DNA from: Sinorhizobium meliloti
Lineage (GTDB): Bacteria; Pseudomonadota; Alphaproteobacteria; Rhizobiales; Rhizobiaceae
Length of the DNA: 32,000 nt
Direction of reading: 5' to 3'
Assembly: GCF_017876815.1 (NCBI RefSeq)
Contig: NZ_JAGIOS010000003.1
Location: 330,001 to 362,000 of the forward strand
Part shown: piece by piece, positions 9,668 through 28,397 of the stretch
Numbering within the stretch: the first letter of the stretch is position 1
How the letters are laid out: every line of letters starts with the position of its first letter
Translations under genes and position numbers: made by a program
The notes under the pieces: model-generated
Told to the model about the DNA's origin: nothing
Databases searched by the model: none
What the model saw: the letters and a program-made list of their open reading frames with translations, nothing else

Positions 9668-9826
9668 ACTCTACATCCGCACGCTCGATTTATGGTTCAT
9701 GTCGATAGATGTAAGAGAACTATGCCCACTAATCCATAGGCTATGCTTTTGCTACCGTCCCAGCTGAAACAGTTTGCTCGCTGTTTCCGCGCCCGTTTTC
9801 CCGCAAGCTGCATTGAGGACACCGCC

Positions 9827-10273: not shown

Positions 10274-10287
10274 TCGGGAGCGACACC

Positions 10288-12531: not shown

Positions 12532-12896
12532 ACAAGGTCGTCATTGCTGCGCTCGTTTCTCTTGCTGTTTCAGGCCACGCCACGCCGGCTCTGTCTCAGG
12601 AGGCTGCGCCAGGTCAGAAGCTGTTTCAGCAACGCTGCGGTGCGTGCCATCAGCTCGAGACACCTCGAAACGGCGTCGGACCGCATCTGCTGGGTGTCGT
12701 CGGCCGAACGGCCGGCAGCGTTGACGGCTTCAGGTATTCCGCGGCTCTTAAAGGTTCCGGTTTCGCATGGACCGCCGAAACGCTGGAAACCTTCCTGAGC
12801 AATCCCGCCGCGATGGTTCGCGGAACGCGCATGGCCCAGCGTTTCAACAACGCCGACGAGCGTCGAGCGATCATCGCGTTCCTTAGGGCGCAATAG
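12528..12896 (+). CDS. Class I c-type cytochrome subunit, Sec signal peptide
   Basis: Heme motif CGACH and a distal Met region. Signal peptide KVVIAALVSLAVSGHATPALSQEA. TTG start overlaps the IorB stop (TTGA) and is preceded by AAAGGAG at 12514-12520. The upstream part of the track ORF starting at 12048 lies inside iorB. Confidence 0.75.
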   Translation: MNKVVIAALVSLAVSGHATPALSQEAAPGQKLFQQRCGACHQLETPRNGVGPHLLGVVGRTAGSVDGFRYSAALKGSGFAWTAETLETFLSNPAAMVRGTRMAQRFNNADERRAIIAFLRAQ

Positions 12897-13124: not shown

Positions 13125-13692
13125 ATGACGAATCCAACATTCGGCGAGACAATCGTCAAAACCGCCGCGGCCTGGGGCGCAGTGGCGTCCATGGCGCTGT
13201 GCGTTGCAGTGCTGATCGCTTCGGAATTCATGCCGGTCAGCCTCCTGACGCCGATCGCCCGTGATCTTGGTATGAGCGAGGGCCAGGCCGGACAGGCGAT
13301 TTCGATCTCCGGTCTGTTCGCCGTGTTGACCAGTCTCTTCATTGCGGGGTTCACGCGGAAGATCGACCGCAAGTTCGTCCTGTCCTCGTTCTCGCTCATG
13401 CTGATCGTCTCGGGGCTCGTCGTATCCTTCGCCCCCAATTACGCGGCTCTGATGGTCGGTCGGGCGCTGCTCGGCGTTGCCATCGGCGGATTCTGGTCGA
13501 TGTCCACCGCGGTCGTCATGCGCCTCCTGCTGGAGAGTGCGGTGCCGGAGGGCCTTGCGTTGCTGAATGCCGGCAACGCTATCGCTGCCACGATCTCCGC
13601 TCCGCTCGGCAGCTTTCTGGGATTACATCGGCTGGCGGGGCGCGTTCTTCTTCGTGGTTCCGCTGGCGCTCATTGCGCGCCGCGGGTCTTGA
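13125..13692 (+). pseudogene. MFS transporter remnant (N-terminal ~6 TM), frameshifted near 13620 and truncated
   Basis: The first ~165 aa are MFS-like (LTPIARDLGMSEGQAGQAISISGLF, GRALLGVAIGGFWS). After ...GSFLG the expected continuation DYIGWRGAFFFVVPLALIA is present only in the +1 frame (13621-13677). That frame stops at 13690-13692. No second six-helix half follows. Confidence 0.7.
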
Positions 13693-13754
13693 TCGGCGGC
13701 GCCATCACCAGGGCCGTACTGCCGCGCCTGGTATGGGCTCAAAAGGAGACTAAC

Positions 13755-14105
13755 ATGAAGATGCGCATTGCCTTTGCCGATCACGTGTTCACGGCTACGC
13801 TCTACGACAGCCCCCCGGCGCGCGACCTCTGGTCGATGCTCCCGCTCGAGCTGGAGATCGACAATTACGCCAACAACGAGAAGATCGCCTATCTGCCCCG
13901 AAAGCTGACGGAGGAAGGCAGCGGTTCGTTCTCCAACGAAGCCCCGGGCGACCTCTGCTACTATGCTCCCTGGGGTAATCTGGCATTCTTCTACGCTGGC
14001 TATCGCTACTCGGCCGGTCTGATCCGGCTTGGCCGGCTGGATGGCGGCGTCGAACCTTTGCTCACACGCGGAAAGTTTCCACTCCGCATCGAACGACTGT
14101 CCTGA
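13755..14105 (+). CDS. Small cyclophilin-like-fold protein (116 aa)
   Basis: MKMRIAFADHVFTATLYDSPPARDLWSMLPLELEIDNYANNEKIAYLP...GDLCYYAPWGNLAFFY resembles the cyclophilin-like superfamily of small proteins. It has its own AAGGAG SD at 13743-13748. It shares a frame with the upstream remnant, which explains the fused track ORF. Confidence 0.65.
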   Translation: MKMRIAFADHVFTATLYDSPPARDLWSMLPLELEIDNYANNEKIAYLPRKLTEEGSGSFSNEAPGDLCYYAPWGNLAFFYAGYRYSAGLIRLGRLDGGVEPLLTRGKFPLRIERLS

Positions 14106-14165: not shown

Positions 14166-16586
14166 TCACATTCGAAGCCTTTCGCCTGCGGGGTCGAAGG
14201 GCGGCCGTTCCAGGATGACTGCGTCATGGGCGCGGCCGAGGATCGCAACACTCACCTTGTTACCCGGTTTCGCCATTTCAGCCTTGATGTAGCAGAGCGC
14301 TAGCGACATGCCGACCGTATAGCCGTAGGCGCCGGATGAAACCTGGCCGATCGGGGTGCCGTCCCGGAGAAAGATCGGCTCGCCGCCGGTGGCGTCCGCA
14401 TCCGTGGCGTCGATCGATATCATGGCGAGCTTCTGCCTCGGAAGCTTCCCTGCGATTTCCTGGTAAGGGGCCTTGTTCAGGAACACGTCCTTGTCGAGCT
14501 TGATCAGCCGGTCGAGAGCGCATTCCTGCGGCCAGTATTCCGGCGAATACTCGCGGCTCCAGCTGCCATAGCCCTTTTCGATGCGCAGCGAGGCGAGTGC
14601 GCGTGAGCCGACCGGACCCGCGCCGAGATCCGCGCCGGCTTCCAGCAAGGCGTCGTAGAGCGCGACCTGCCTTTCGGCGTCGCAGTAGAGTTCCCAGCCG
14701 AGATCGCCGGTGAACGAGACGCGCAGCGCGATGACCTCGACGCCAGCGACGCGCATCCTGCGCGACCGCATGAAGGAGAAGTTCTCGTTGGAAAGGTCGT
14801 CATTCGTCAGGCGCATCAGCAATTCGCGCGATTTCGGCCCGGCGATGTTGAAGGCGCAAAGGCGCTCCGTGAGCGAGGTGAAGGTCGTGTCGTCGGGAAG
14901 CGGAACCGCATTGAAGAAGCGCTGATGGTAGCGTTCCGCCATGCCTGAGCCGAAGATCATGAACTCGTCGTCGCCGAGCTTCGTCACCGTGAAATCCCCG
15001 GCGATGCCGCCCCGCTTGCCGATGAGAGGCGTCAGGCACGAGCGGCCGACCCCAGTAGGCATGCGGTTGGCAAAAAGCGCGTTCAGCCAGTCGGAGGCAC
15101 CCGCTCCCTTCACTGCGTATTTCGCAAAGTTCGAGATGTCGATAATGCCGGCGCTTTCGCGCAGCATGCGGGCCTCGCGGCCGACGGGCGCCCACCAGTT
15201 CTGGCGGGTAAAACCGATCGTCTCTTCCTTCGGCTCGCCCTCGGCGGAAAACCAGAGCGGATGCTCCCAGCCGAAATTCAGGCCGAAGACGGCGCCCGTT
15301 GCCTTCTGTTTCTCATAAGCCGGCCGGGTGCGAACGGGTCGTCCGGCTGCCCGCTCCTCATTGGGAAAGTGGATCTTGAAACGGTGGCTGTACTGGTCCT
15401 GGACGCGCGCCTTGGTGAAGGCCTTGTTCGCCCAGTGACCGAAGCGCGCCATGTCCCAGCCGAACATGTCGAGCGACGGCTCGCCCTCGATCATCCATTC
15501 CGCTGCAAGCTTGCCCATCCCGCCCGACTGCGAGAATCCGGGGATGATGCCGTTGCAGCAGAAATAATTCGTCATTTCCGGTACCGGACCGAAGAGGACC
15601 GCGCTATCTGGCGACCAGATCATCGGCCCGTTGATGACGCGCTTGATGCCCGCCGTTCCGACCACCGGCACGCGATCGATCGCGCGCATCATATTTTCCT
15701 CGATGCGTTCAAGGTCGTCGGGGAAGAGTTCGTGACCGAAACCGAGCGGCGTGCCGTCCTCGGCCCAGAAGCGCATGTCGCGCTCATAGGCGCCGATCAG
15801 GAGGCCCAGGCCCTCCTGCCGCAGGTAATACTCGCCGTCGCGATCAGCGACGGAGGGAAGCCGCCGGTCAAGGGCGGCGATCTCCGCTATGGTCTCGGTG
15901 ACGAAATACTGGTGTTCCGTCGGCATCAGCGGAAGTTCGAGGCCCGCCATGGCGGCGACTTCACGGCCCCACAATCCTGCGGCGTTGACCACCCACCGGG
16001 TGCGTATGTCGCCTTTCGGGGTGCGCACGATCCAGCTGCCGTCCGCTTGCGCCTCCGTACCGGTGACGGGCGTGAAGCGGTGTATTTCGGCGCCGCGCCT
16101 GCGCGCGCCTGCGGCATAGGCCATCGTCACACCGGAGGGGTCGACATTGCCGCCCTCCGGCTCGTACATGATGCAGCGGATGCCGTCGAAGTTGACGAGC
16201 GGATGCAGCCGCTCGGCCTCGTCACGGCCGATCTCGTAGAAGTTCATCTTGTAGCGGCGCGCCTTGGCCTCTTGGAGCCGGAGCTGGTGCTCGCGCGCCT
16301 CGGTCTGAGCAAGATAGAGCGATCCCGGCTGGAAGATGCCGCATCCTTGCCCGGTCTCGACCTCCAGCTCCTTGTAGAGCGCCATCGTATAATGCTGAAG
16401 CAGGCTGATATTGGTGGAGTCGTGCAGGCCGTGGATGTTGGCGGCCGCATGCCAGGTCGACCCTGATGTCAGTTCGCTCCGCTCGAGAAGCACGACGTCG
16501 GACCAGCCGAGCTTGGTGAGATGGTAGAGAATGGAGCAGCCGATGAGACCGCCGCCGATGACGACCGCTTGAGCGTGGGAGCGCAT
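14166..16586 (-). CDS. FAD-dependent oxidoreductase fused to a GcvT-type folate-binding domain (dimethylglycine/sarcosine dehydrogenase family)
   Basis: 806 aa. N-terminal dinucleotide fold VVIGGGLIGCSILYHL, with HAAANIHG close by. C-terminal aminomethyltransferase-like half (ISNFAKYAVKG, GYGSWSREY...). Length and architecture are typical of DMGDH/SARDH. Confidence 0.85.
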   Translation of the reverse strand: MRSHAQAVVIGGGLIGCSILYHLTKLGWSDVVLLERSELTSGSTWHAAANIHGLHDSTNISLLQHYTMALYKELEVETGQGCGIFQPGSLYLAQTEAREHQLRLQEAKARRYKMNFYEIGRDEAERLHPLVNFDGIRCIMYEPEGGNVDPSGVTMAYAAGARRRGAEIHRFTPVTGTEAQADGSWIVRTPKGDIRTRWVVNAAGLWGREVAAMAGLELPLMPTEHQYFVTETIAEIAALDRRLPSVADRDGEYYLRQEGLGLLIGAYERDMRFWAEDGTPLGFGHELFPDDLERIEENMMRAIDRVPVVGTAGIKRVINGPMIWSPDSAVLFGPVPEMTNYFCCNGIIPGFSQSGGMGKLAAEWMIEGEPSLDMFGWDMARFGHWANKAFTKARVQDQYSHRFKIHFPNEERAAGRPVRTRPAYEKQKATGAVFGLNFGWEHPLWFSAEGEPKEETIGFTRQNWWAPVGREARMLRESAGIIDISNFAKYAVKGAGASDWLNALFANRMPTGVGRSCLTPLIGKRGGIAGDFTVTKLGDDEFMIFGSGMAERYHQRFFNAVPLPDDTTFTSLTERLCAFNIAGPKSRELLMRLTNDDLSNENFSFMRSRRMRVAGVEVIALRVSFTGDLGWELYCDAERQVALYDALLEAGADLGAGPVGSRALASLRIEKGYGSWSREYSPEYWPQECALDRLIKLDKDVFLNKAPYQEIAGKLPRQKLAMISIDATDADATGGEPIFLRDGTPIGQVSSGAYGYTVGMSLALCYIKAEMAKPGNKVSVAILGRAHDAVILERPPFDPAGERLRM

Positions 16587-16821
16587 GGAAATCCAGCCTT
16601 GAAACGATGACCTGTGCCGCCGGCGGATCTCTGCCGGCGCGGCTCCAGTTTAGGGACGGGCCGTTTTTTGCAAAGCTGCGTAATGCGGGAAATCGGGCCC
16701 TTTTGTCATCGGATGGACAAATAAAACGAGGTCATTGATCTCGCAATTTTCGTTTGTTGCGCGGCAAGTTCCGGCTAGTTTGAAATCGGCCCTTTCCGGC
16801 ATCGAGCCAACGGGTCACCGG

Positions 16822-17709
16822 TCAGCCGATCACCTTCTGAGCCTCGGCGATGATCCAGTCGCGCACCTTCGAGACGGTCGTTCCTTTCGACGCCTGTCCT
16901 TCGGCGAGGTAGTAGTTCCACGCGCTCCTGGTGCGGATCTGAAACGGCTCGACGAGCAGGCCGCGATCCACATAGGTCCGCGCGAGCGACTGGGTGGTCA
17001 CGATGCAGCCGGCGCCGCTCGCCGCCATTTCCAGCGCGATATTGGTGGAATTGGTGGAAAGCCGCTTGTCGTTTGCGGATGCATCTATGCCGAGCGCATC
17101 GGCCATTTCCTGCCAGAACTCCTGCCGCCCGTGCACGGCGATCCAATTCGATTTAAGAACGTCGGCCGGCGTCCTGATTGCATTCTGGCCGTGGACGAGC
17201 TGGGGCGCGCATAGAAGCACAAGCCGGTCGTTCCACAATTGCATGCCGCTTGCCGGCATGTTGTCGAATCGTCGGATCGAAATCAGGATGTCGGCGATTT
17301 GCTCGGTCGAATCCTCCCAGATCGTACCGTGCAGAAGGATTTCCACGTCGGGATGTTTCCTGCTGAACCCGGCCACGCACCTTGCCAGCCAGTTTTCGGC
17401 AAGGCTCGTTGGGCAGGAGATGACGACGGTTTTGTTGCGTGCCGACGCAAGAACCGCTTCCGTAGCGAAATCGATCTGGTTCAGAGCCTGGCGCAGGGTG
17501 GGAAGAAAGGCCTCGCCCATCTCGGTCAGCTTGAGGCTGCGCGGATAGCGGATGAAGAGCTGGCGCCCGAGATATTGCTCGAGCGCCCGCACATGATTGC
17601 TGATGGCGGCCTGCGTATAGCCCAGTTCGCTGGCCGCCTCGGTGAAGCTGAGATGCCGGGCAGAGCACTCGAAGGAGCGGATGTAGTTCAATGGCGGCGG
17701 CGGCTTCAT
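16822..17709 (-). CDS. LysR-family transcriptional regulator
   Basis: HTH SFECSARHLSFTEAASELGYTQAAISNHVRALE. Start taken at MKPPPPLNYIRSF (ATG 17709, preceded by GGGAA). The 35-aa upstream extension in the track ORF (to 17814) is atypical for LysR proteins. Confidence 0.85.
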   Translation of the reverse strand: MKPPPPLNYIRSFECSARHLSFTEAASELGYTQAAISNHVRALEQYLGRQLFIRYPRSLKLTEMGEAFLPTLRQALNQIDFATEAVLASARNKTVVISCPTSLAENWLARCVAGFSRKHPDVEILLHGTIWEDSTEQIADILISIRRFDNMPASGMQLWNDRLVLLCAPQLVHGQNAIRTPADVLKSNWIAVHGRQEFWQEMADALGIDASANDKRLSTNSTNIALEMAASGAGCIVTTQSLARTYVDRGLLVEPFQIRTRSAWNYYLAEGQASKGTTVSKVRDWIIAEAQKVIG

Positions 17710-17753
17710 CTGAAGTTCCCTTTTGTGCGACGCTAGCCTGCCCGCTCCGGCAC

Positions 17754-17766
17754 TTGCAAGACGCAA
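17754..17766. promoter_or_regulatory. Candidate LysR box (T-N11-A): TTGC-AAGAC-GCAA
   Basis: Inverted repeat TTGC/GCAA with a 5-nt spacer, 13 nt in total, in the 224-bp divergent region between the LysR gene and the MttB-family gene. A CCATG-A-CATGG palindrome and a T8 run follow at 17772-17790. Confidence 0.35.
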
Positions 17767-17933
17767 GCGTGCCATGACATGGTTTTTTTTGGGCATTGCC
17801 GCCGAACTTATCATGTGAAGACCGGTGCATCATTGGCCATAGTTTCGGTGAGCGGAACAGAAAAAGCACAAGTATTCGGAGCAGGCCTTCTGTGGCCTAG
17901 CTGCGCGGATCAGGGGATGAAAGGCAGTTCTCG

Positions 17934-19469
17934 ATGAGCGGCAGACGCGGCGGCGGAAGACGATCGCGAGCAATCCGGGGCGGCGATGGTATCTCGCAGC
18001 TGCCATGGCAGGAGGTCGTCAACACCTATGCCCCGATGCAGCTTCTCGACGAGGAGCGTATTGAGGCCCTTCACCGCAATTCGATGCGCATCCTCTCCGA
18101 AATCGGCATTCGCGTTATGAGCGAAAAGGCGATGGCGCTGTTCGAGAAGGCGGGCGCAATCGTCGACCGCGAGAACCTGATGATCCGCATCGACGAATCC
18201 ATCGTCGAGGCGGCGCTCGCCACGACGCCGTCTTCCTTCACGCTGACCAGCCGCAATCCCGAAAAACGGCTGACGATCGGCGGCAACACGATCGCCTTTG
18301 GGCTCGTGGCAGGTCCGCCCAACGTGCACGACCGGGTCAACGGCCGGCGGCAAGGCAATCTCGCCGATTACCAGAACTTCACGCGTCTGGCCCACCACTT
18401 CAACGCTATCCACATTCTCGGGAACCAGGTCTGCGCGCCGATGGAGCTGCCGGCCAATTCCCGGCACCTCGATACCTACAAGGCGAATCTTACGCTCAGC
18501 GATCTTTGCTTCCACTGCACCGCCATCGGGCGGGGGCGGGCCGTGGACGGCATCAACATGATGGCGATCGCGCGCGGCATCAGCGTCGAGGAGATGAGCC
18601 AATCCCCCGGCGTCATCACGATCATCTCGGTGAACTCGCCGCGGCTTTTCGACGACGCGATGGCGGACGGACTGATCGCCATGGCCGAGCACGGGCAGCC
18701 GGTGACCATCACGCCCTTCACGCTGATGGGCGCCATGACGCCGGTGACGCTTGCGGCAGCACTCTGCCAGCAGAATGCCGAGGCGCTGTTCGGCGTCACG
18801 CTTGCGCAGCTGGTCAATCCGGGTACGCCGGTCATGTATGGTGCATTCACGTCCAATGTGGACATGCGCTCCGGCGCCCCCGCCTTCGGCACGCCGGAGA
18901 ACGCCAAGGCCAACATTATCGCGGGCCAGCTCGCGCGGCGCTACAAGCTTCCCTATCGCACGTCGAACGCAAATGCCTCTAACGCCGTCGACCTTCAGGC
19001 AGCCTACGAGACGGAAATGGCGACTTGGGGTGCGGTGCTCGGGGGTGCCAACCTCATCTATCACGCGGCGGGATGGCTCGAAGGCGGCCTCACGGCCTCC
19101 TATGAGAAGCTCGTGCTCGATGTGGAGATCCTGCAGAACATGATGGGCTTCCTCGAGCCCATGCCCTTCTCCGAGGACGATCTCGGCTTCGACGCTATCA
19201 GATCCGTACCGGCGGGCGGGCACTTCTTCGGTTCCGAACACACGATGGCGCGATACGAGACGGCCTTCTATCAGCCGATGCTGTCCAACTGGCAGAATTA
19301 CGGCAGCTGGCAGGAAGCCGGCGGCCGCGACGCGCTGGAGCGCGCGACCGACATCTGGCAGCAGGCCCTGCGAGAATATGAGGAGCCGGTACTCGACCCG
19401 GCGATCCGGGAAGAGCTCGATGCCTACATGATCAAGCGGCGCGCGGAGATCGGGGCGGGCGAACCTTGA
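17934..19469 (+). CDS. MttB-superfamily (trimethylamine methyltransferase-like) protein, non-pyrrolysine type
   Basis: 511 aa, uninterrupted with no in-frame amber codon. Arg/Gly-rich N-terminus followed by LPW...N.Y.P...L..E.IE.LH..SMRILSEIGI, as I recall for bacterial non-Pyl MttB homologues. TIM-barrel-sized body. Confidence 0.8.
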   Translation: MSGRRGGGRRSRAIRGGDGISQLPWQEVVNTYAPMQLLDEERIEALHRNSMRILSEIGIRVMSEKAMALFEKAGAIVDRENLMIRIDESIVEAALATTPSSFTLTSRNPEKRLTIGGNTIAFGLVAGPPNVHDRVNGRRQGNLADYQNFTRLAHHFNAIHILGNQVCAPMELPANSRHLDTYKANLTLSDLCFHCTAIGRGRAVDGINMMAIARGISVEEMSQSPGVITIISVNSPRLFDDAMADGLIAMAEHGQPVTITPFTLMGAMTPVTLAAALCQQNAEALFGVTLAQLVNPGTPVMYGAFTSNVDMRSGAPAFGTPENAKANIIAGQLARRYKLPYRTSNANASNAVDLQAAYETEMATWGAVLGGANLIYHAAGWLEGGLTASYEKLVLDVEILQNMMGFLEPMPFSEDDLGFDAIRSVPAGGHFFGSEHTMARYETAFYQPMLSNWQNYGSWQEAGGRDALERATDIWQQALREYEEPVLDPAIREELDAYMIKRRAEIGAGEP

Positions 19470-19476
19470 GGGGCAG

Positions 19477-20469
19477 ATGAGGGATACGCAGGAAATCCGC
19501 TTTGCGGTATTGATGTTTCCGAACTTTCCGTTGATGGCTTTCAGTTCGGTCATCGAGCCGCTGCGCGCAGCCAACACGTTGTCCGGCAGGCGCTGCTATT
19601 CCTGGCTCACGGTCGCTGCCGGCGAGAAGATCAGCGCGTCGAATGGCATCGGTATCGAGCCGGACTTTCATGTGCGCAACGCACCAGAGGTTGATCGAAT
19701 TGTCGTGTGTTCGGGCGGTGACGCAGAGCATCTCGTCGCGGACGAGGAGATGGCGTGGATCCGCAAGAATCTCCGCGCCGGGGCGCTACTTGGTGCGGTG
19801 GCCGATGCTGCCTTCTTCCTGGCGCGCAAAGGGCTGCTCGACGGCCACTCCTGCACGCTCCACTGGACCAGCCAGCCGGCCTTCAAGGAAGCGTTCCCGC
19901 ATCTCGACATGCGCTCGGACCTCTATGTGATCGACCGCCGCCGCTTCACCTCCGTCGGCGGCATCGGCAGCCTCGACATGATGCTGGACATGATCGGACG
20001 GGACTATGGCGCCGAGCTCGCCGACGGCGTCGCCGGCTGGTTCATGCACAGCCCGCTGCGGCCGGACGCCGATCGCCGGAAGCTGACCTTGCGTATCCGG
20101 AGCGGCATCGCCGACGACCTGGTCCTTTCCGCGGTGGCGATGATGGAGGACGCCATCGAGGACGTTTTGCGGATCGAGGACCTGGCAAGCCGGCTGAATG
20201 TCTCATCCGATAAGCTCGAACGCGCCTTCAAGGCCGAACTTGGCGTGTCGCCCAACAGCTACTATCGCAATCTGCGGCTCGGTCATGCGGCAGACATGCT
20301 GACGCATTCAAACCTCAAGGTGAATGAAGTCGCCGTCGCGTGCGGTTTCGTAAATGCCGCAAACTTCTCCCGCGCCTTCAAAGAGCAGTTCGGATATGTC
20401 CCGCACAGCGTTCGCCGCCGCGTCTCGCGAGCGGGCGAGGCGCCCCGCGCAGTCGCGGGGCTGAAATAA
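19477..20469 (+). CDS. GlxA-family regulator (DJ-1/PfpI-like N-domain + AraC HTH); GbdR/CdhR/SouR-type
   Basis: N-terminal FAVLMFPNFPLMAFSSVIEPLRAAN and GGIGSLDMMLDMI (amidotransferase-like sensor domain). C-terminal AraC HTH (VACGFVNAANFSRAFKEQFGYVP). Starts 7 nt after the MttB-family stop. Confidence 0.85.
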   Translation: MRDTQEIRFAVLMFPNFPLMAFSSVIEPLRAANTLSGRRCYSWLTVAAGEKISASNGIGIEPDFHVRNAPEVDRIVVCSGGDAEHLVADEEMAWIRKNLRAGALLGAVADAAFFLARKGLLDGHSCTLHWTSQPAFKEAFPHLDMRSDLYVIDRRRFTSVGGIGSLDMMLDMIGRDYGAELADGVAGWFMHSPLRPDADRRKLTLRIRSGIADDLVLSAVAMMEDAIEDVLRIEDLASRLNVSSDKLERAFKAELGVSPNSYYRNLRLGHAADMLTHSNLKVNEVAVACGFVNAANFSRAFKEQFGYVPHSVRRRVSRAGEAPRAVAGLK

Positions 20470-20560
20470 TGAAGCCGCGCGGATTCTGGCATAGATCCTG
20501 CGGAATCGGCGCAAATGCGCGCTCCGACTCTTCTCCATCCTGCTGGAAAAGGAGAATGTC

Positions 20561-21865
20561 ATGAGCATTGTTGTATTCGATCCCGACAGCGTGGATGACG
20601 TGGACTTCAAGGACCGGATGCGCCATCCGGAGACAGCCGATCCGGCCGGCGGCATGTGGCTTTCGGACACGGAACCGTCCTTTATCGACGCCGACGCCCT
20701 GCGCAACGGGCGTTTGAAGAAGCTTCGCGACTGGATGCGCGCTGCCGGTTACGGCGCGGTGGTCCTTTTCGACCCCTATAACCAACGCTACGCGACGGGC
20801 TCCCGAAACATGTTCGGGTATTTCCTGCGTAACTCCACCCGCTATTTCTTCATCCCCACTGAAGGTCCGGTCGTCCTCTTCGAATATCCGCAGAGCTATC
20901 ACGTCTCGATGGTCCTCGACACGATAGACGAGGCTCGCCCCTCCAAGCTTGTCTGGTCCTCCGTCTCCGGTAAGGACGACGAGACCGCCGGGCCGTTCGC
21001 GGACGAGATTACCGATTTGCTCAAGCAGCATGGCGGCGGGTCGATGAAGCTCGGCATGGACCGCTGCAGCCATCTGCAGGCACTGGCGCTCGAAAAGCGC
21101 GGGTGCGAGGTGAAGGACTGCCAGGGCGAAATTCTCGCCGTCAGGGCCGTCAAGACTCCTGAAGAGATCAAATGCCTACAGGTATCCATGGCCGGCGCCG
21201 AAGCTGCCGTGGCCGCCGTGCGCGAAGCGATCAAGCCGGGCGTTTCCGAAAACGAGCTCTTCGCGATCATGTATCATGAAGTGATTCGGCAGGGCGGCGA
21301 GTTCATCGAGACCCGGCTGCTGAGTTCCGGCCAGCGAACCAATCCCTGGTTCAACGAGGCAAGCGGCCGCAAGATCAGGCCGGGTGAGCTCGTGGCCCTC
21401 GATACCGATACGATCGGCTGCTACGGCTACTATTCCGATTTCTCGCGAACCTTCCGCTGCGGTCCCGGTAAGCCGACCCCTTACCAGAAGTCGCTCTACC
21501 GGATGGCCTACGACCAGGTTCAGCACAATATCGACATCGTCAAGCCGGGTATGGCCTTCCGCGAGATCGCCGAAAAGGCCTGGAAGATACCAGACCGCTT
21601 CGTCGATCAGCGTTACACGTCCGTGATGCACGGCGTCGGCATGCACGGCGAGACGCCGTTCATCGCCCATGCGATGGACTACGAGACCTACGGTCGCGAT
21701 GGACATCTCGTGCCCGGAATGGTCGTGTCGGTCGAAAGCTATATCGGCGAAAAGGGCGGCCGAGAGGGCGTGAAACTCGAAGACGAGATCCTCATTACGG
21801 AGAACGGCACGGAGCTCCTGTCGCGCTTTCCCTATGAGGACGAATTCCTGAGCGGGGAGACTTGA
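20561..21865 (+). CDS. M24-family metallohydrolase (creatinase/prolidase fold), DddP-like by eye
   Basis: Creatinase_N-like segment (RLKKLRDWMRAAGYGAVVLFDPYNQRYATG). Metal-ligand pattern ALDTDTIGCYGYYSDFSRTF, MHGVG, VSVESY, KLEDEILITENG. AAGGAG SD before the ATG. Confidence 0.8.
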   Translation: MSIVVFDPDSVDDVDFKDRMRHPETADPAGGMWLSDTEPSFIDADALRNGRLKKLRDWMRAAGYGAVVLFDPYNQRYATGSRNMFGYFLRNSTRYFFIPTEGPVVLFEYPQSYHVSMVLDTIDEARPSKLVWSSVSGKDDETAGPFADEITDLLKQHGGGSMKLGMDRCSHLQALALEKRGCEVKDCQGEILAVRAVKTPEEIKCLQVSMAGAEAAVAAVREAIKPGVSENELFAIMYHEVIRQGGEFIETRLLSSGQRTNPWFNEASGRKIRPGELVALDTDTIGCYGYYSDFSRTFRCGPGKPTPYQKSLYRMAYDQVQHNIDIVKPGMAFREIAEKAWKIPDRFVDQRYTSVMHGVGMHGETPFIAHAMDYETYGRDGHLVPGMVVSVESYIGEKGGREGVKLEDEILITENGTELLSRFPYEDEFLSGET

Positions 21866-22545
21866 TGAAGAAACCGTTGCGGATCGACCGCGCGAAAGCC
21901 GCCGCCCTTTTTATCGATCTCCAGGAGGAGCATCGCCGCGACGAGCGCTATCTCGTCGAAGGTTACGATACGGTGCTCGGCAATGCCGCACGCCTTCAGT
22001 CGGCGGCCCGCCGAAGCGGCATCCCCGTCTTTCACTGCGCCTATATCGTCGATCTCGCCGACAATCTTCGCCCGTTCCATCCGATCGGACCGGACGGACG
22101 TTCCGCCTTCAGCGACAAGGACGATCCGCTCACGGCGATTTGCCCGGAGGTCGCTCCGCTTCCGTCGGAGCGGCTGCTTGTCAAAAACGAAGCGAGCGCC
22201 TTCGGCAAGAGCCCCTTGATCGGCGAATTGCGGGACGCAGGCGTGGAATGGCTGGTGATCGCCGGCGTCTGGACCGAGGCTTGTGTCGATGCAACGGTCA
22301 AGGACGCGATCAACCTTGGCCTGCATGTCCTACTCGTCAAGGATGGCTGCGGCAGCGGCGGCCTTGCGATGCACCAGACCGGCATTCTCAATCTGGCGAA
22401 CCGCCTCTATGGCGGTGCGGTCGTCGGTACCGAAGCCGCTTGCGCCCTTCTGGAAGGAGATACGGTCGAAGCATGGCGGGTCGAGGGATCGGTGCCCCTG
22501 CGTTACACTTTCGAGAATGCCGCTAAACTTTACGGCGAACTCTGA
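21865..22545 (+). CDS. Isochorismatase-family cysteine hydrolase
   Basis: Candidate Asp-Lys-Cys triad contexts ALFIDLQ, LLVKNEASAF and GVWTEACVD. The ATG at 21865 overlaps the upstream TGA (TGATG). The track uses TTG 21862. Confidence 0.8.
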   Translation: MKKPLRIDRAKAAALFIDLQEEHRRDERYLVEGYDTVLGNAARLQSAARRSGIPVFHCAYIVDLADNLRPFHPIGPDGRSAFSDKDDPLTAICPEVAPLPSERLLVKNEASAFGKSPLIGELRDAGVEWLVIAGVWTEACVDATVKDAINLGLHVLLVKDGCGSGGLAMHQTGILNLANRLYGGAVVGTEAACALLEGDTVEAWRVEGSVPLRYTFENAAKLYGEL

Positions 22546-22566
22546 CGAGCGTTGATAGGGGCACGC

Positions 22567-22610
22567 ATCAGAGCGGAAGGCCGGGTGTTCCGCCTGCATC
22601 CCGCTCTGAT
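22567..22610 (+). terminator. Candidate intrinsic terminator or large intergenic hairpin
   Basis: Perfect 10-bp arms ATCAGAGCGG / CCGCTCTGAT enclose a 24-nt segment with its own short helix. TTATT follows. It lies 21 nt after the isochorismatase stop. Confidence 0.5.
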
Positions 22611-22695
22611 TTATTGGAATCGGTCACGCGCATGGTTTCAGGTCGAACCGGCCTGAGACATCGTGATGCAGTTTAGGAGAGGCAGGCGGCAACGA

Positions 22696-23358
22696 ATGGA
22701 GATCGTTCGGTTCATCATCGACAATCTGGACATCATAGGCACGCGGACGATCGAGCACATTTCGATCGTCTTCCTGGCGGTTGGGATTGCGATCGCGACG
22801 GCCGTTCCGATCGGGGTTGCGATCACGCAGTCGAAGAGCACGGCCGACACCGTTCTCTATCTCGCGTCGATGATGATCACCGTTCCCTCGATTGCGCTGT
22901 TCGGCCTGATGATCCCGCTGCTCTCGCCGATCGGGCATGGCATCGGCTATGTCCCGGCGGTCGTAGCCGTCATTCTCTATTCCCAGCTTCCCATCATCCG
23001 CAACACCTACACCGCCATCACCAATGTCGATCCGGCTCTTCGGGAGGCCGCGAAAGGGATGGGGATGAGCACCTGGCAACGTCTGCGCCAGGTCGAAATC
23101 CCGCTTGCCATTCCGGTCATCATGGCCGGCGTCAGGACTGCCGTCGTCATGAACATCGGCGTGACAGCGATTGCGGCCTATATCGGCGCAGGCGGCCTTG
23201 GCACGTTCATCTCGCGCGGCATCAGCCAGTCCGATCCCCGTCAACTGGTGACCGGAGCGCTGGCGGTTTCGCTGCTTGCGATCGCAGCCGACCTTTTCCT
23301 CGCGCTCGTGCAGCGCCTTCTCACGTCACGCGGTATTCAGGGGGAGGTCACGCCATGA
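22696..23358 (+). CDS. ABC transporter permease, OpuCB/OpuBB (betaine/choline/carnitine) type
   Basis: Polytopic membrane protein carrying the binding-protein-dependent permease signature region (LREAAKGMGMSTWQRLRQVEIPLAIPVIMAGVRT). The start is uncertain: ATG 22696, ATG 22666 or GTG 22663. Confidence 0.8.
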   Translation: MEIVRFIIDNLDIIGTRTIEHISIVFLAVGIAIATAVPIGVAITQSKSTADTVLYLASMMITVPSIALFGLMIPLLSPIGHGIGYVPAVVAVILYSQLPIIRNTYTAITNVDPALREAAKGMGMSTWQRLRQVEIPLAIPVIMAGVRTAVVMNIGVTAIAAYIGAGGLGTFISRGISQSDPRQLVTGALAVSLLAIAADLFLALVQRLLTSRGIQGEVTP

Positions 23359-24470
23359 TCCGGCTCGAGAATCTGACGAAACACTACGGCCCGGCGCATG
23401 ATCCGCTCATTGCCGTCGACAATGTGAGTCTAGACTTACCCACCGGAGAGATCTGCGTGCTGCTCGGTCCCTCGGGATGCGGCAAGACGACGACGATGAA
23501 GATGATCAACCGTCTGATCCAGCCAACCAGCGGCAAGGTCTTCATCAACGGCAAGGACACGAGCACCATCGATCCGATCAAGCTGCGGCGGACCATCGGC
23601 TATGTGATCCAGCAGATCGGCCTTTTCCCGAACAAGACGATCGAGGAAAATATCTGTGTCGTGCCGGACCTTCTGGGCTGGGATCGCCGCAAGTCGCGCG
23701 CCCGCGCCAAAGAGCTCCTCGAGCTTGTCGGCCTCCAGCCCGACCTTTTCCTCAAGCGCTACCCGAAGGAACTTTCAGGCGGCCAGCAGCAGCGTGTCGG
23801 CGTTCTGCGCGCCCTTGCGGCCGATCCGCCGGTCATGCTGATGGACGAGCCGTTCGGGGCGATCGATCCGATCAACCGCGAAGCCATCCAGGAGGAGTTC
23901 CTGAAGATGCAGCGGGAGATCCGCAAGACGATCATCTTCGTCTCACACGATCTCGACGAAGCGGTGAAGATGGCGGACAAGATCGCGATCTTCCGCAGCG
24001 GCAGGCTCGAACAATATGCCGCGCCCGACGAACTGCTCGCCCGTCCCGCCAACAGCTTCATCGAAGACTTCCTGGGCTCGGACCGGGCACTCAAGCGGCT
24101 GAGGCTCGTCTCGGTGCGCGACGCCATGGAGACGGGTTTCATCACGGTCCGGAGCTCGGACTCGGTCGAGCATGCGCTTGAGCGCATGCGATCGTCGCGC
24201 AGCGCTGCAGTCTTTGTGCTGAACGCCGACGGCGCACCGCAATCTCTCTTGAGTGAGCAGGTGGCGGAGCTGCGCTCCGGTACGGTGGGCGATCATGCGG
24301 AACCGGTAAAGTCTGCCGTCCCGACCACCGGCGATCTTAGGCAGGCCGTGTCGATAATGTTCGCCCACGACATGCCGCTGCTGCCCTGCGTCGACGAGGG
24401 CGGTCGGATGGCAGGCGTGATGAGCTACCGTTCCATCGTGCACTATCTCGCCCATGGAGCAAAGGCATGA
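23355..24470 (+). CDS. ABC transporter ATP-binding protein with a C-terminal tandem CBS domain (OpuCA/OpuBA type)
   Basis: Walker A GPSGCGKTT. Signature LSGGQQQRV. Walker B VMLMDEPF. CBS-like C-terminal ~120 aa. ATGA overlap with the upstream permease. Confidence 0.9.
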   Translation: MIRLENLTKHYGPAHDPLIAVDNVSLDLPTGEICVLLGPSGCGKTTTMKMINRLIQPTSGKVFINGKDTSTIDPIKLRRTIGYVIQQIGLFPNKTIEENICVVPDLLGWDRRKSRARAKELLELVGLQPDLFLKRYPKELSGGQQQRVGVLRALAADPPVMLMDEPFGAIDPINREAIQEEFLKMQREIRKTIIFVSHDLDEAVKMADKIAIFRSGRLEQYAAPDELLARPANSFIEDFLGSDRALKRLRLVSVRDAMETGFITVRSSDSVEHALERMRSSRSAAVFVLNADGAPQSLLSEQVAELRSGTVGDHAEPVKSAVPTTGDLRQAVSIMFAHDMPLLPCVDEGGRMAGVMSYRSIVHYLAHGAKA

Positions 24471-25222
24471 GCGCTCTCGTCAGCCCGGCCGCACCGCAGC
24501 AAAGGCGCCGGATCGAGACCGCGCCTTTGATCGTGCTCATCGTGCTGGCCGGAACCGTCGCCTGGCTGTGGTGGAGCGGCATGGCAGAGGAAATCCTCGC
24601 CTATTCCGACGACATCTCCTATCTCACCGTGCAGCATCTGGAACTGGTCGCCTGGGCGGGAGGGCTTGCCATCCTTGTGGCCGTACCGGTCGGCATCGTG
24701 CTTTCGCGGCCCGCCTTCCGCCTCGTTTCGGAGGCGGTGATGCAAGTCTTCAATATCGGCAGCACCGTGCCGACGCTTGCGATTCTGGCGCTTTCTATGA
24801 CGCTGCTCGGGATCGGTACGGTGCCCGCGGTCTTCGGTCTCTGGGCGGCCACCCTCCTTCCGATCGTGCGCAACACCTATGCCGGCCTGCGCGCCGTGCC
24901 GCCGCACCTCGTGGAGGCCGCAACCGGCATGGGCATGACGCCGCGGCAGGTTCTGTGGCGGGTCGAACTTCCAAACGCCCTCTTCGTGATCTTCGGCGGC
25001 ATCCGCACGGCGCTCGCGATCTGCGTCGGCTCCGCGCCTCTGGTCTTTCTGATCGGCGCGGGCGGGCTTGGCGAACTGATCTTCACCGGGATCTCGCTGG
25101 ACGAACTCCCGATGATGATGGCCGGGGCCATTCCCACGGCAATGCTCGCGGTCCTGGTCGATTTCATCGTCGGCCAGATTCAGTACTACCTCGTTCCACG
25201 GGGCATCAATCCGCTGCGATAA
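24467..25222 (+). CDS. ABC transporter permease, OpuCD/OpuBD type
   Basis: Second polytopic permease with the EAA-like region (LVEAATGMGMTPRQVLWRVELPNALFVIFGGIRT). ATGA overlap with the ATPase gene. Confidence 0.88.
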   Translation: MSALVSPAAPQQRRRIETAPLIVLIVLAGTVAWLWWSGMAEEILAYSDDISYLTVQHLELVAWAGGLAILVAVPVGIVLSRPAFRLVSEAVMQVFNIGSTVPTLAILALSMTLLGIGTVPAVFGLWAATLLPIVRNTYAGLRAVPPHLVEAATGMGMTPRQVLWRVELPNALFVIFGGIRTALAICVGSAPLVFLIGAGGLGELIFTGISLDELPMMMAGAIPTAMLAVLVDFIVGQIQYYLVPRGINPLR

Positions 25223-25245: not shown

Positions 25246-26136
25246 ATGAACTTCGCACCGAAACTTGCCAAGACCCTTCTGTCGGCGGCGGCCATCGCGC
25301 TCGTAACGACGACCGCCTGGGCCGCCACCATTACCGTCGGCGGGAAAAACTTCACCGAGCAGCTGATCATCGCAGAGATTACCAAGCAGCTCCTCGAGAG
25401 CAAGGGCCACACCGTCGACAAGAAAGACGGCATGGGCACGAAGATCGTCCGCGCCGCACTGGAGAATGGCGAGGTCGATCTCTACTGGGAATACACGGGG
25501 ACGTCGCTCATCACCTTCAACAAGGTGACGGAACGGCTTTCGCCGGAGGAGACCTACAACCGCGTCAAGGAACTGGACGGCGAAAAAGGCCTCGTCTGGC
25601 TCGCACCGTCCGCAGCGAACAATACTTACGCCTATGTCGTCAAGCCGGGTAACGCCAAGACGGAAGGCATGGAGACGATCTCCGACCTCGCCAAGGCATA
25701 TAACGACGGCAAGGATATACTCATGGGCACGACGGCCGAATTTCCGAAGCGGCCGGACGGCCTGATCGGCCTGGAGAAGGTCTACGGCTTCGAGACAGGG
25801 CGCGCCAATGTGCGGCCGATGGACCTTGGTCTTGCCTACAATGCGCTGGCCAACGGCGATCTCGACACCATCGCCGCGCAGGCGACCGACGGCCAGATCG
25901 CGGCACTCGGCTTGAAGACGCTGAAGGACGACAAGGGCTTCTTTCCCAACTATGCGCTGACCCCCGTCGTGCGCAAGGAAGTGCTCGACGCGAATCCGGA
26001 CCTCAAGGAAACGCTCGAAACGGTCTCGAAGAAGCTCGATGACGCCACGATGCAGCGTTTGAACAGCCAGGTCGATGTGGAGAAGAAGACCATCGAAACG
26101 GTCGCCGCCAACTATCTGAAGTCGCTCGGCATGTAA
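25246..26136 (+). CDS. Glycine betaine/quaternary-amine ABC substrate-binding protein (OpuCC/OpuBC-like), Sec signal
   Basis: Signal peptide ...LVTTTAWA|A. TVGGKNFTEQLIIAEI, DLYWEYTGT and a C-terminal LN..VD region, typical of the OpuAC-fold family. Confidence 0.85.
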   Translation: MNFAPKLAKTLLSAAAIALVTTTAWAATITVGGKNFTEQLIIAEITKQLLESKGHTVDKKDGMGTKIVRAALENGEVDLYWEYTGTSLITFNKVTERLSPEETYNRVKELDGEKGLVWLAPSAANNTYAYVVKPGNAKTEGMETISDLAKAYNDGKDILMGTTAEFPKRPDGLIGLEKVYGFETGRANVRPMDLGLAYNALANGDLDTIAAQATDGQIAALGLKTLKDDKGFFPNYALTPVVRKEVLDANPDLKETLETVSKKLDDATMQRLNSQVDVEKKTIETVAANYLKSLGM

Positions 26137-26271: not shown

Positions 26272-27396
26272 ATGGTCAAAATATCAAACGTCCGCGTCCG
26301 CCCGCTGGTTCTGCCGCTCAAGCAGCCCTACCACTGGTCCTACGGCATCCGCGAATCTTTTGCGGTCAACCTTATCGAGATCGAGGCGGATGACGGCACG
26401 GTCGGCATCGGCGAATGCACGGTCGCGCCGGACCAGACCGGTACGGCGGCGATCCTTTATCGCCTCGCCAAACATCTCGTCGGCCATTCGCCTCACGACG
26501 TGGCACCGCTCATCGCTCGCATCTTCCACCAGGAATATCTCGGGCATGGCGCCAATATCATGCGGGCGGCCAACCAGATATTTTCTGGCATCGACATGGC
26601 CATGTGGGATCTTCAAGGCAAGCTCGCCGGCCTGCCGGTTCACCAGCTGCTTGGGGGCGCTCACCGGAAGGCGGTCGGCTACTTCTATTTCCTGCAGGGC
26701 GAAACCGCCGAGGAGCTTGCGCGCGATGCCGCCGTCGGCCACGCCCAGGGCGAGCGGGTCTTCTATCTCAAGGTCGGCCGCGGAGAGAAACTCGACCTCG
26801 AGATCACCGCGGCGGTTCGCGGCGAGATCGGCGACGCGCGGCTTCGCCTCGATGCGAACGAAGGCTGGAGCGTCCATGACGCGATCAACATGTGCCGCAA
26901 GCTCGAAAAATACGACATCGAATTCATCGAGCAGCCGACCGTCAGCTGGAGCATTCCGGCCATGGCGCATGTGCGCGAGAAAGTCGGTATTCCGATCGTT
27001 GCGGATCAGGCTGCCTTCACGCTCTACGACGTCTACGAGATATGCCGCCAGCGTGCTGCGGACATGATCTGCATCGGCCCGCGCGAGATCGGCGGCATAC
27101 AGCCGATGATGAAGGCGGCAGCCGTGGCGGAGGCCGCCGGACTGAAGATCTGCATCCACTCTTCCTTCACCACGGGCATCACCACCTGCGCTGAGCACCA
27201 TATCGGGCTTGCCATTCCCAATCTCGACGACGGAAACCAGATCATGTGGCAGCTCGTCCAGGAGGACATCGTCTCCTCGCCCGATCTCGCGCCCAAAAAC
27301 GGCTGGCTCGATGCCTTCAGGAAGCCGGGACTTGGTTTCCAGCTCGCCGAAGACCTGGTCGCCGAAGGCGAAGGACGCTACGCGGCAAGCCGATGA
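26272..27396 (+). CDS. Enolase-superfamily protein (mandelate racemase/muconate lactonizing enzyme family), atypical catalytic residues
   Basis: Barrel motifs FYLKVGRG, RLDANEGW, IEQP, IVADQ and ICIHSS. ATG at 26272 follows GAGGAACGAG. The 23-aa upstream extension in the track ORF is not typical. Confidence 0.8.
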   Translation: MVKISNVRVRPLVLPLKQPYHWSYGIRESFAVNLIEIEADDGTVGIGECTVAPDQTGTAAILYRLAKHLVGHSPHDVAPLIARIFHQEYLGHGANIMRAANQIFSGIDMAMWDLQGKLAGLPVHQLLGGAHRKAVGYFYFLQGETAEELARDAAVGHAQGERVFYLKVGRGEKLDLEITAAVRGEIGDARLRLDANEGWSVHDAINMCRKLEKYDIEFIEQPTVSWSIPAMAHVREKVGIPIVADQAAFTLYDVYEICRQRAADMICIGPREIGGIQPMMKAAAVAEAAGLKICIHSSFTTGITTCAEHHIGLAIPNLDDGNQIMWQLVQEDIVSSPDLAPKNGWLDAFRKPGLGFQLAEDLVAEGEGRYAASR

Positions 27397-28397
27397 CGCC
27401 GGTCGAGACCTCCTGGGAAGAGATCGAGGCGGTTTGCCTCGAGGCGCTGACGCTCCATGGTGCGGCAGCCGAAAACGCACGCGCCGTGGCGGGCGCGATC
27501 GCCACGGCTGAGGCCGATGGCAATCGCGTCTGCGGCCTTTACTACCTGCCGATCTTCTGCAGGCACCTGGCGATCGGAAAGGTCGATGGAGAAGCCGTTC
27601 CCGCGGTGACGACGCGCGGTGTGACGGTTACGGTCGACGCAAGATCCGGCTTCGCACATCCCGCCATAGCCGCCGGCACGCCGGCCCTGATCGACCTTGC
27701 ACGCCAGGCGGGCCTCGCGGCAATGGCGGTGCGCAACTCCTATAATTGCCTCGCGCTCGGTCATCACGTCCGGCCCCTTGCCGACGCCTGCCTTATCGGC
27801 ATCTGCGTTTCGAATGCGCCTGCCTCTGTCGCGCCGCCCGGTGCGACGCGGGCGCTCTTCGGCACGAACCCGCTTGCCTTCGCCGTACCTTCGAAAGAAG
27901 GGGCTCCGACAATCATGGTCGATCAGAGCATGAGTGCTGTCACCAAGACGGAGATGATCCTGCGCCGCGATCGAGGCGAGGCAATCCCGATCGGCTGGGC
28001 GCAGGACGGGAACGGACAGCCGACGACCGACGCGGCCACCGGGCTGGAAGGCTCTCTGCTGCCCGCCGGCGGTCGCAAGGGCGCCAATATCGCCCTTCTC
28101 GTGGAAGTCCTTGCTGCGGCCCTGACGGGTTCGGCCCTCAGCACGGAGGCGAGCGCCTTTGGAAACGAGGAGGGTGGGCCGCCGCATGTCGGCCAGTTCC
28201 TGATCGCGATCGACCCTGATCACTTCGCCGCCGGTCACTTCTCCGAAGCGATGGATAATCTGGTCGCCTCCCATGGCGCCGCCGGGGTAAGGCTTCCCGG
28301 CCACTTTGGACGAAAGCAGCCCGTTTGCGTCGATGCTGATCTTTGGAAGAGGGCCGTTTTGCTTTCGCAATCGAAGGTCGGTCAGAAGCCTGGATAA
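27393..28397 (+). CDS. Ldh2-family (malate/L-lactate dehydrogenase type 2, DpkA/ComC/AllD-like) protein, atypical active site
   Basis: Conserved family blocks GTNPLAFAVP, LPAGGRKGANIALLVEVL and GQFLIAIDP. ATG 27393 overlaps the enolase-gene stop (ATGA). The track ORF start 27246 lies inside the upstream gene. Confidence 0.8.
   Translation: MTPVETSWEEIEAVCLEALTLHGAAAENARAVAGAIATAEADGNRVCGLYYLPIFCRHLAIGKVDGEAVPAVTTRGVTVTVDARSGFAHPAIAAGTPALIDLARQAGLAAMAVRNSYNCLALGHHVRPLADACLIGICVSNAPASVAPPGATRALFGTNPLAFAVPSKEGAPTIMVDQSMSAVTKTEMILRRDRGEAIPIGWAQDGNGQPTTDAATGLEGSLLPAGGRKGANIALLVEVLAAALTGSALSTEASAFGNEEGGPPHVGQFLIAIDPDHFAAGHFSEAMDNLVASHGAAGVRLPGHFGRKQPVCVDADLWKRAVLLSQSKVGQKPG

Follow-up and report, generated by a model that had tools for sequence, protein, structure and literature searches.

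A 32,000-nucleotide stretch of Sinorhizobium meliloti DNA (assembly GCF_017876815.1, contig NZ_JAGIOS010000003.1, positions 330,001 to 362,000, forward strand; hereafter the window) encodes a methyltransferase of the non-pyrrolysine MttB superfamily without the corrinoid partners that would be expected beside it. We found that this orphan status is only apparent, and that it is explained by an arrangement published in 2025. The enzyme (hereafter the window MttB) is likely a substrate-specific ‘spoke’ methyltransferase of the cobalamin-dependent MtgBCD-type system that, in aerobic Alphaproteobacteria, is shared with the split methionine synthase. The window was 100% identical to plasmid NC_017327.1 of S. 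meliloti SM11, a pSymA-type megaplasmid, and the same region was ~99.5% identical in strains 1021, 2011, Rm41, BL225C and many others. A preliminary description had proposed a layout of six genes, coding for a DMGDH-like enzyme, a LysR regulator, the MttB protein, a GlxA/GbdR-type regulator, an M24 hydrolase and an isochorismatase-family hydrolase. Pfam and NCBIfam scans placed all six on the proposed strands and at nearly exactly the proposed coordinates (Table 1).

The window MttB matched PF06253 (MTTB) over its full length (residues 5–507; 705.7 bits, gathering cut-off 25 bits). It did not qualify as a pyrrolysine-type MttB, with a TIGR02369 score of 311.6 against a cut-off of 525 and a 511-codon open reading frame (ORF) free of internal stop codons. 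The closest solved structure was 4YYC, a chromosomal paralogue from Sinorhizobium. Compared with the glycine betaine methyltransferase MtgB of Desulfitobacterium hafniense, the window MttB scored 329 bits at 37% identity.

As stated in the preliminary description, no gene for a B12-binding or pterin-binding protein was present in the 32 kb. None was detected by Pfam among 30 window ORFs (short ORFs at ~7.8–8.8 kb and the Xre/RES genes at 28.5–29.4 kb excluded), and the MtgC, MtgD, RACo and DUF1638 proteins of Sinorhizobium gave zero tblastn matches in all six frames of the window. Rfam and tRNA scans of the window were empty, and no cobalamin riboswitch was detected in it. The preliminary description had allowed that a partner set lying immediately outside the window would make the system an ordinary one. 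No B12-binding or pterin-binding gene was annotated in the flanking 20 kb on either side in pSymA of strain ml59; the system is nevertheless not unusual, as shown below. No record of pSymA or pSymB contained an MtgC homologue, and MtgD, RACo and DUF1638 were likewise absent from these records. The four partners were also absent from the 91 loci searched by tblastn (of 93, the hub loci L092 and L093 being left out). Eighty of these were orthologous loci from other species, centred on the MttB orthologue with up to 10 kb on each side. Since none of these 80 loci contained MtgC, MtgD, RACo or DUF1638, members of this orthologue group are as a rule encoded apart from the partner genes, in line with the published model.

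In that model, established for the aerobic Ruegeria pomeroyi, MtgB enzymes of the pfam06253 family act together with two common partners, the cobalamin-binding MtgC and the methyltransferase MtgD, which binds pterin (Mausz et al. 2025, PMC12478193). MtgC and MtgD double as a split methionine synthase, and their genes lie away from the pfam06253 genes, of which there are up to seven scattered paralogues per genome around one common core (PMC12478193). In S. meliloti, MtgBCDE, the reactivation genes and the cob operon are co-located, and the substrates of the extra MttB paralogues in aerobic Alphaproteobacteria are explicitly left open (PMC12478193). We located such a core in Sinorhizobium. Structure 4YYC corresponds to a chromosomal paralogue (P0124) on contigs of up to 3.65 Mb. 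Its neighbourhood (L092) encodes a 232-residue protein with B12-binding_2 and B12-binding domains (MtgC), DUF1638, MTHFR, a 319-residue Pterin_bind protein (MtgD) and a 683-residue RACo-type activase, together with an S-methyl_trans protein (Bhmt/MtgE), an OpuAC ABC system and CbiA. Both parts occur in one genome: in Sinorhizobium sp. K101 this hub lies on a 3.52-Mb replicon and the window operon, at 94.5% nucleotide identity, on a 772-kb plasmid. MtgC, MtgD and a reductive activase, the set that defines an aerobic MtgBCD-type system, are thus encoded on the Sinorhizobium chromosome (locus L092) and, in K101, in the same genome as the operon. Of the two explanations offered in the preliminary description, partners encoded elsewhere was therefore upheld, the chromosomal MtgC/DUF1638/MTHFR/MtgD/RACo/MtgE cluster adjoining a paralogous MttB.

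The other explanation, a corrinoid-free mechanism not yet described, found no support in a genus with a complete corrinoid hub. In this scenario the window MttB would transfer a methyl group directly to tetrahydrofolate (THF), perhaps via the THF-binding domain of the adjacent DMGDH-like enzyme, and it would be the first member of its superfamily to be independent of a corrinoid protein. The conserved partner of the gene is indeed a THF-dependent DMGDH-like enzyme, and neither a corrinoid nor a pterin gene was found up to 10 kb from the orthologue in the 80 species. However, this local absence, its sole support, is already predicted by the hub model, in which paralogues scattered around one core are the published norm (PMC12478193). 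The hub adjoins a paralogue in the genome, the MtgB fold and the carboxylate-binding residues are kept, and our survey of the MttB-family literature yielded no corrinoid-free enzyme. We regard direct transfer to THF as very improbable.

The substrate site indicated how the window MttB differs from its chromosomal paralogue. In D. hafniense MtgB the quaternary nitrogen of glycine betaine is held by Y97 and F356 through cation-pi interactions and the carboxylate by R312 and H348, and the Y97A exchange raises the KM ~340-fold (PMC13080624). Other MttB-family enzymes for acidic quaternary amines keep R312, keep H348 less strictly and do not keep the aromatic pair (PMC13080624). We aligned the window MttB, 120 of its orthologues and 120 orthologues of the chromosomal paralogue with MtgB. 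R312 and H348 were invariant in both groups, and the F356 position was Gly in both. The Tyr97 position, in contrast, was Ala in 120/120 window orthologues and Tyr in 120/120 chromosomal paralogues. The window MttB thus carries the carboxylate-binding half of the glycine betaine motif without the aromatic half, and is probably not the glycine betaine enzyme. It shared 37% identity with the chromosomal MttB beside MtgC, which is 45% identical to MtgB. On these sequence grounds the chromosomal protein is the better glycine betaine candidate, because it keeps Tyr97 and has the higher identity to MtgB. The megaplasmid protein most likely binds a different, and probably bulkier, carboxylate betaine.

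Orthologues of the window MttB with 76–97% identity were present in 80 species of Rhizobiaceae, Phyllobacteriaceae, Labrys, Paracoccaceae and others. Mapping of the window proteins onto the 80 loci, combined with Pfam-annotated examples, distinguished two gene contexts. In type I (Sinorhizobium, Shinella, Rhizobium, Phyllobacterium, Labrys, Pseudaminobacter, Tabrizicola and other Paracoccaceae), the genes for the DMGDH-like enzyme and LysR point away from those for MttB, the OpuC-type ABC transporter, an enolase-superfamily enzyme and an Ldh_2-family oxidoreductase. In type II (Mesorhizobium, Fuscovulum, Leisingera and some metagenome-assembled genomes), the LysR gene is followed by genes in the order PrpD-like, (SoxBDAG-like), (DHDPS), 2-hydroxyacid dehydrogenase, MttB and (DMGDH-like). 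The type II PrpD-like protein had no NCBIfam equivalog. LysR and the DMGDH-like enzyme were the constant partners of MttB across both contexts: LysR occurred in 68/80 loci, and a DMGDH-like protein of 78–93% identity was encoded near the MttB orthologue in 37/80, often directly adjacent (one further locus had only a 38% paralogue). This synteny makes it probable that, as the preliminary description proposed, the DMGDH-like enzyme takes the next methyl group. The suggested import of the substrate by the OpuC-type system is likewise probable, its genes being syntenic with MttB in type I loci (68–96% identity). The enolase was 83–95% identical in these loci. In Mesorhizobium, a hydantoinase/carbamoylase-like cluster adjoins the MttB orthologue at several loci; in one of them (L087, 11555–20150) it comprises Amidohydro_3, an isochorismatase-family Cys hydrolase, an M20 carbamoylase-like protein, DAO, FrhB-like, CN_hydrolase, Amidohydro_1 and RidA.

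The same comparison changed the extent of the operon. The preliminary description had ended it after the isochorismatase gene, at a hairpin; instead, the conserved unit continues through the ABC transporter, enolase-superfamily and Ldh_2 genes. In Tabrizicola, other Paracoccaceae and Shinella, the regulator and M24 genes are lacking, and the genes for MttB, the transporter, the enolase and Ldh_2 make up a single, tightly spaced operon. Both of these genes were missing in two Shinella loci (L008/L009) and two Paracoccaceae loci (L033/L045) with the remaining operon kept, and the isochorismatase gene was kept in 14/18 type I loci. The core unit is therefore made up of the DMGDH-like enzyme, LysR, MttB, the OpuC-type ABC transporter, the enolase-superfamily enzyme and the DpkA-like Ldh_2 reductase, with the regulator and M24 genes as an optional lineage-specific insert.

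The hairpin itself exists: it has a perfect 10-bp outer stem, which arose in 0/100 shuffles, and a fold of −28.2 kcal/mol (z = −0.87). It was rejected as an intrinsic terminator, since it does not fit the canonical form. It sits in a 123-bp insert that, at this site between the isochorismatase and permease genes, is specific to S. meliloti. S. medicae, S. psoraleae, Shinella and Rhizobium lack the insert, and their permease ATG follows the isochorismatase stop codon at a distance of ~24 bp. The 123-bp sequence was found in 455 places in 133 plasmid records, all of Sinorhizobium. The hairpin thus belongs to a dispersed repeat and does not mark the end of the operon. A self-contained operon of the six genes, in which the two hydrolases would act directly on the product of the MttB reaction, would agree with the stable hairpin 3' of the isochorismatase gene and with the tight spacing (an 8-bp gap between the MttB and regulator genes, and an isochorismatase start overlapping the M24 stop codon). 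With the hairpin confined to a Sinorhizobium repeat, not of canonical terminator form and replaced by a short spacer in sister taxa, and with the regulator and M24 genes missing from loci that keep MttB and the downstream genes, we consider such an operon quite improbable. Further downstream, the enolase and Ldh_2 genes overlap by 4 bp. In another S. meliloti genome (L002, GCA_028888155.1), serine recombinase and IS66-family genes were inserted immediately after the isochorismatase gene (14612–20715); no gene for the first permease was called there between the isochorismatase and ATPase genes, and the betaine operon is split at this point.

Several of the accessory proteins resembled characterised enzymes without reaching the level of an equivalog. 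The DMGDH-like protein had the four domains of its family and matched human DMGDH (5L46) with 634 bits, which makes it a member of the dimethylglycine dehydrogenase family. The LysR protein scored 222.7 bits with the GcvA subfamily model (cut-off 288), and the OpuAC-type binding protein 187.9 with the OsmF model (cut-off 400). The GlxA-type regulator had the DJ-1/PfpI plus AraC helix-turn-helix architecture of the wider GATR class, and was not a GbdR equivalog (NF052371, 289 bits against a cut-off of 480).

The enolase-superfamily protein was identical to PDB entry 2PGW (852 bits), which was deposited without an assigned function and for which we found no functional study in the literature. 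It was rejected as an orthologue of HpbD, its match to 4E8G/4IZG being no better than its matches to many other enolase-superfamily members, and it scored 117.9 with the cis-3-hydroxyproline dehydratase model (cut-off 500). Neither this protein nor the Ldh_2 protein matched an NCBIfam equivalog. Enolases of the muconate lactonizing enzyme (MLE) subgroup include proline betaine racemase, hydroxyproline betaine 2-epimerase and cis-3-hydroxyproline dehydratase/2-epimerase, and the product of the dehydratase is pyrroline-2-carboxylate (PMC5144071; PMC3950512). We propose that the window enolase is a racemase/epimerase or a dehydratase acting alpha to a carboxylate. The best PDB match of the Ldh_2 protein was 1WTJ (190.8 bits), which makes DpkA, a pyrroline/piperideine-2-carboxylate reductase and N-methyl-amino-acid dehydrogenase, its probable closest characterised relative.

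The M24 protein had its nearest relative in DddP, a dimethylsulfoniopropionate (DMSP) lyase (247 bits to 4RZY/4S01). The protein keeps the DddP metal ligands D295, D297, D307, H371, E406 and E421 as well as Tyr366, but the catalytic base Asp377 is replaced by a Gly that was invariant in 12 orthologues. With this replacement and an NF043017 score of 316.6 (cut-off 600), an assignment as DddP was rejected; judged by its sequence, the protein is not a DMSP lyase by the known mechanism. Creatinase was rejected as well (44 bits to 7YTO and 38 bits to 1CHM, against 247 to DddP). The M24 gene encodes the most conserved protein of the cluster across genera (92–98% identity, compared with 85–97% for MttB at the same loci, L007–L084), which suggests strong constraint or recent horizontal spread. 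The isochorismatase-family protein has the Asp-Lys-Cys triad in motifs (FIDLQ, KNEASAF and TEACV) conserved in 14 orthologues, and gave weak matches to N-carbamoylsarcosine amidase and biuret hydrolase. Isochorismatase-family hydrolases recur near MttB in both gene contexts, those of Mesorhizobium being only 37–42% identical to that of the window.

These families raise the alternative that the window MttB is a second glycine betaine methyltransferase in an island for methylated glycines. Glycine betaine would be converted to dimethylglycine by MttB and to sarcosine by DMGDH, while the M24 and isochorismatase-family enzymes would supply sarcosine from compounds resembling creatine or N-carbamoylsarcosine, with a GbdR/SouR/CahR-type regulator in control. 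The score of the flavoenzyme with human DMGDH, GbdR as the best model for the regulator, the N-carbamoylsarcosine amidases among the isochorismatase-family matches and the SoxBDAG-like genes adjoining the orthologue in Mesorhizobium and Fuscovulum all fit this proposal. The two hydrolase families are also those used in creatine and creatinine breakdown, and in Pseudomonas putida creatinase is an M24 enzyme under a GATR-type regulator. However, creatinase has, to our knowledge, no metal site, whereas the window M24 protein keeps the full site and is far closer to DddP. Moreover, the enolase and the DpkA-like reductase of the same operon, or the PrpD-like protein of type II, would have no role on an achiral substrate. 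The Tyr97 to Ala replacement runs through all aligned window orthologues, an exchange that cripples glycine betaine binding in MtgB (PMC13080624), and it is the chromosomal paralogue that keeps the Tyr and the higher identity to MtgB. A second glycine betaine enzyme is thus unlikely.

Returning to a spoke enzyme fed by a distant hub, we infer methyl transfer to MtgC, an order of steps and a class of substrate from what was observed: the gene content, the synteny, the residue pattern, and partner genes that are missing locally but present at another place in the same genome. Import of a carboxylate-bearing quaternary amine would fall to the adjacent OpuC-type ABC system. MttB would bind this amine and move one N-methyl group onto the Co(I) of the corrinoid protein MtgC, from which MtgD would hand it to THF, while the RACo-type activase and DUF1638 would keep the cobalamin reduced. 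MtgC, MtgD and the activase would be supplied from the chromosome and not from the megaplasmid. The divergently encoded DMGDH-like flavoenzyme would then strip off the next N-methyl group, released as methylene-THF, and the co-operonic enolase and DpkA-like reductase may handle the chiral alpha-carbon or a cyclic imine of the demethylated product.

Legumes make stachydrine isomers, hydroxystachydrines and homostachydrine. A chiral alpha-amino-acid betaine of this proline-betaine type is the best candidate for the substrate, though somewhat less likely than not, because the clusters combine an enzyme acting alpha to a carboxylate (the enolase in type I, the PrpD-like protein in type II) with a betaine transporter, a reductase for 2-imino/2-oxo acids and exactly two dedicated N-demethylases. 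Our search returned no relevant literature on MttB and stachydrine, or on a pSymA trimethylamine methyltransferase.

Several points weigh against the proposed route or its substrate. The link between MttB and MtgC is predicted from homology, from co-occurrence in a genome and by analogy with one published model organism. The enolase has only 80.6 bits to HpbD and no NCBIfam equivalog. According to work cited in PMC3950512, S. meliloti already has a Rieske-type stachydrine demethylase, so that L-stachydrine would be a redundant substrate. The type II context, with PrpD-like, SoxBDAG-like, DHDPS and 2-hydroxyacid dehydrogenase genes, is in no more than loose accord with a proline-type substrate, and its SoxBDAG set would suit a betaine with three methyl groups. 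The roles of the M24 and isochorismatase-family enzymes are left unexplained by a hub-and-spoke arrangement.

Among characterised systems, the aerobic MtgBCD(E) of R. pomeroyi, Phaeobacter inhibens and S. meliloti (PMC12478193) is similar in having a pfam06253 gene apart from a common MtgC, MtgD and RACo/DUF1638 set and several paralogues per genome; it belongs to the same bacterial class, and S. meliloti is explicitly included. The window MttB differs in its low identity to the MttB beside MtgC, in the Ala for Tyr97 and in its location on a symbiotic megaplasmid, where it is accompanied by a transporter, a flavoenzyme, an enolase and a reductase of its own. With D. hafniense MtgB (DSY3156; PDB 2QNE/9YCE) it shares the fold, the family and R312 plus H348; unlike the window protein with its Ala and Gly, MtgB has the cation-pi pair, and its anaerobic host encodes the cognate corrinoid system next to it. 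By description, the window MttB resembles MtpB, MtcB, MtyB and MthB of Eubacterium limosum, for proline betaine, carnitine, gamma-butyrobetaine and phosphocholine, respectively, where many substrate-specific MttB paralogues feed one corrinoid protein. These enzymes also keep R312 (H348 less strictly) without a conserved aromatic pair (PMC13080624), but they belong to an anaerobic acetogen.

Two further likenesses concern the neighbouring genes. The HpbD/HpbB1C1/HpbA pathway of Paracoccus denitrificans (PMC3950512) likewise removes two N-methyl groups in succession and includes an enolase-superfamily enzyme, a betaine transporter and a LysR regulator. In contrast to the window cluster, its first demethylase is a Rieske oxygenase instead of an MttB, its enolase HpbD is not orthologous to the window enolase, and it has no counterpart of the DpkA-like reductase. 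The M24 protein shares the six metal ligands and Tyr366 with DddP (PDB 4RZY, 4S01, 4B28), and is set apart by the Gly at Asp377, a score below the NCBIfam cut-off, a soil bacterium as host and a betaine cluster as context.

Table 1. Features of the MttB region, with positions in the window.
Feature	Position	Strand	Evidence
DMGDH-like FAD/THF-dependent N-methyl amine dehydrogenase, 806 aa	14166..16586	-	Pfam DAO+FAO_M+GCV_T+GCV_T_C
LysR-family regulator (GcvA-like), divergent from MttB	16822..17709	-	Pfam HTH_1+LysR_substrate; ORF extendable to 17814
LysR/MttB divergent intergenic region, presumed promoter/operator	17710..17933	.	sequence read directly
Non-pyrrolysine MttB-superfamily methyltransferase, 511 aa	17934..19469	+	PF06253, 705.7 bits
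GATase1-like AraC-family (GlxA/GbdR-type) regulator	19477..20469	+	DJ-1_PfpI+HTH_18
M24 metalloenzyme, DddP-like fold	20561..21865	+	Creatinase_N+Peptidase_M24
Isochorismatase-family cysteine hydrolase (amidase type)	21865..22545 (alternative start 21862)	+	PF00857, 130.8 bits
Dispersed repeat carrying the hairpin 22567-22610	22546..22668	.	S. meliloti-specific insert at this site
OpuC-type ABC transporter: permease, CBS-domain ATPase, permease	22696..25222	+	BPD_transp_1, ABC_tran+CBS, BPD_transp_1
OpuAC-type betaine-binding periplasmic protein	25246..26136	+	PF04069, 227.7 bits
Enolase-superfamily (MLE subgroup) enzyme	26272..27396	+	MR_MLE_N+MR_MLE_C
Ldh_2-family NAD(P)H oxidoreductase	27393..28397	+	PF02615, 260.9 bits

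The LysR start at 17709 (295 aa) follows other annotations of the region. No consensus sigma-70 site was found in the intergenic region between the LysR and MttB genes.

Other genes of the window lie outside the conserved unit. Two oxygenase alpha-subunit-like ORFs at 2191–5814 (+) consist of the VanA_C catalytic domain without a Rieske domain, and are followed by a 588-residue protein in which a Rieske domain is joined to a DmmA-like/FNR reductase and a plant-type ferredoxin; in this oxygenase, the reductase appears to have taken over the Rieske centre. A molybdo-hydroxylase at 9743–12896 (+), with a 2Fe-2S subunit, a molybdopterin subunit and a cytochrome c, resembles isoquinoline oxidoreductase or nicotinate dehydrogenase and has its own LysR gene (8744–9667, −). 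Both sets were dropped as candidate parts of the pathway, as each was syntenic with the MttB orthologue in 0/80 loci. In a 326-residue ORF at 13125–14105 (+), a cyclophilin-like domain is fused to the N-terminal portion of an MFS transporter. In pSymA of strain ml59 this site holds an intact 430-residue MFS gene and a separate cyclophilin-like gene; an internal deletion or fusion has therefore taken place in SM11 and several other strains (loci L001–L004). The next genes after Ldh_2, at 28505–29409 (+), code for a pair of an Xre/ParS-type antitoxin and a RES-domain toxin, as annotated with Pfam in the identical locus L001.

The puzzle of an MttB in an aerobe without B12 machinery at hand is solved in principle by the common MtgC/MtgD hub, and the finding does not point to new chemistry. 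The orthologue group of the megaplasmid MttB is well defined, with 76–97% identity in 80 species, an invariant Ala at Tyr97 and a fixed DMGDH-like partner. In this alfalfa symbiont, the gene is carried by the symbiotic megaplasmid, next to the genes for a betaine transporter. Two neighbouring genes code for enzymes without an assigned function, one with a structure of its own (2PGW) and the other closest to DddP structures. It is conceivable, if somewhat doubtful, that an as yet undescribed aerobic, B12-dependent route for a chiral betaine of plant origin is encoded by the cluster. If so, this route would assign new functions to the 2PGW enolase and the DddP-like M24 enzyme. Discovery of the substrate could link the vitamin B12 demand of rhizobia to their use of host-derived betaines.

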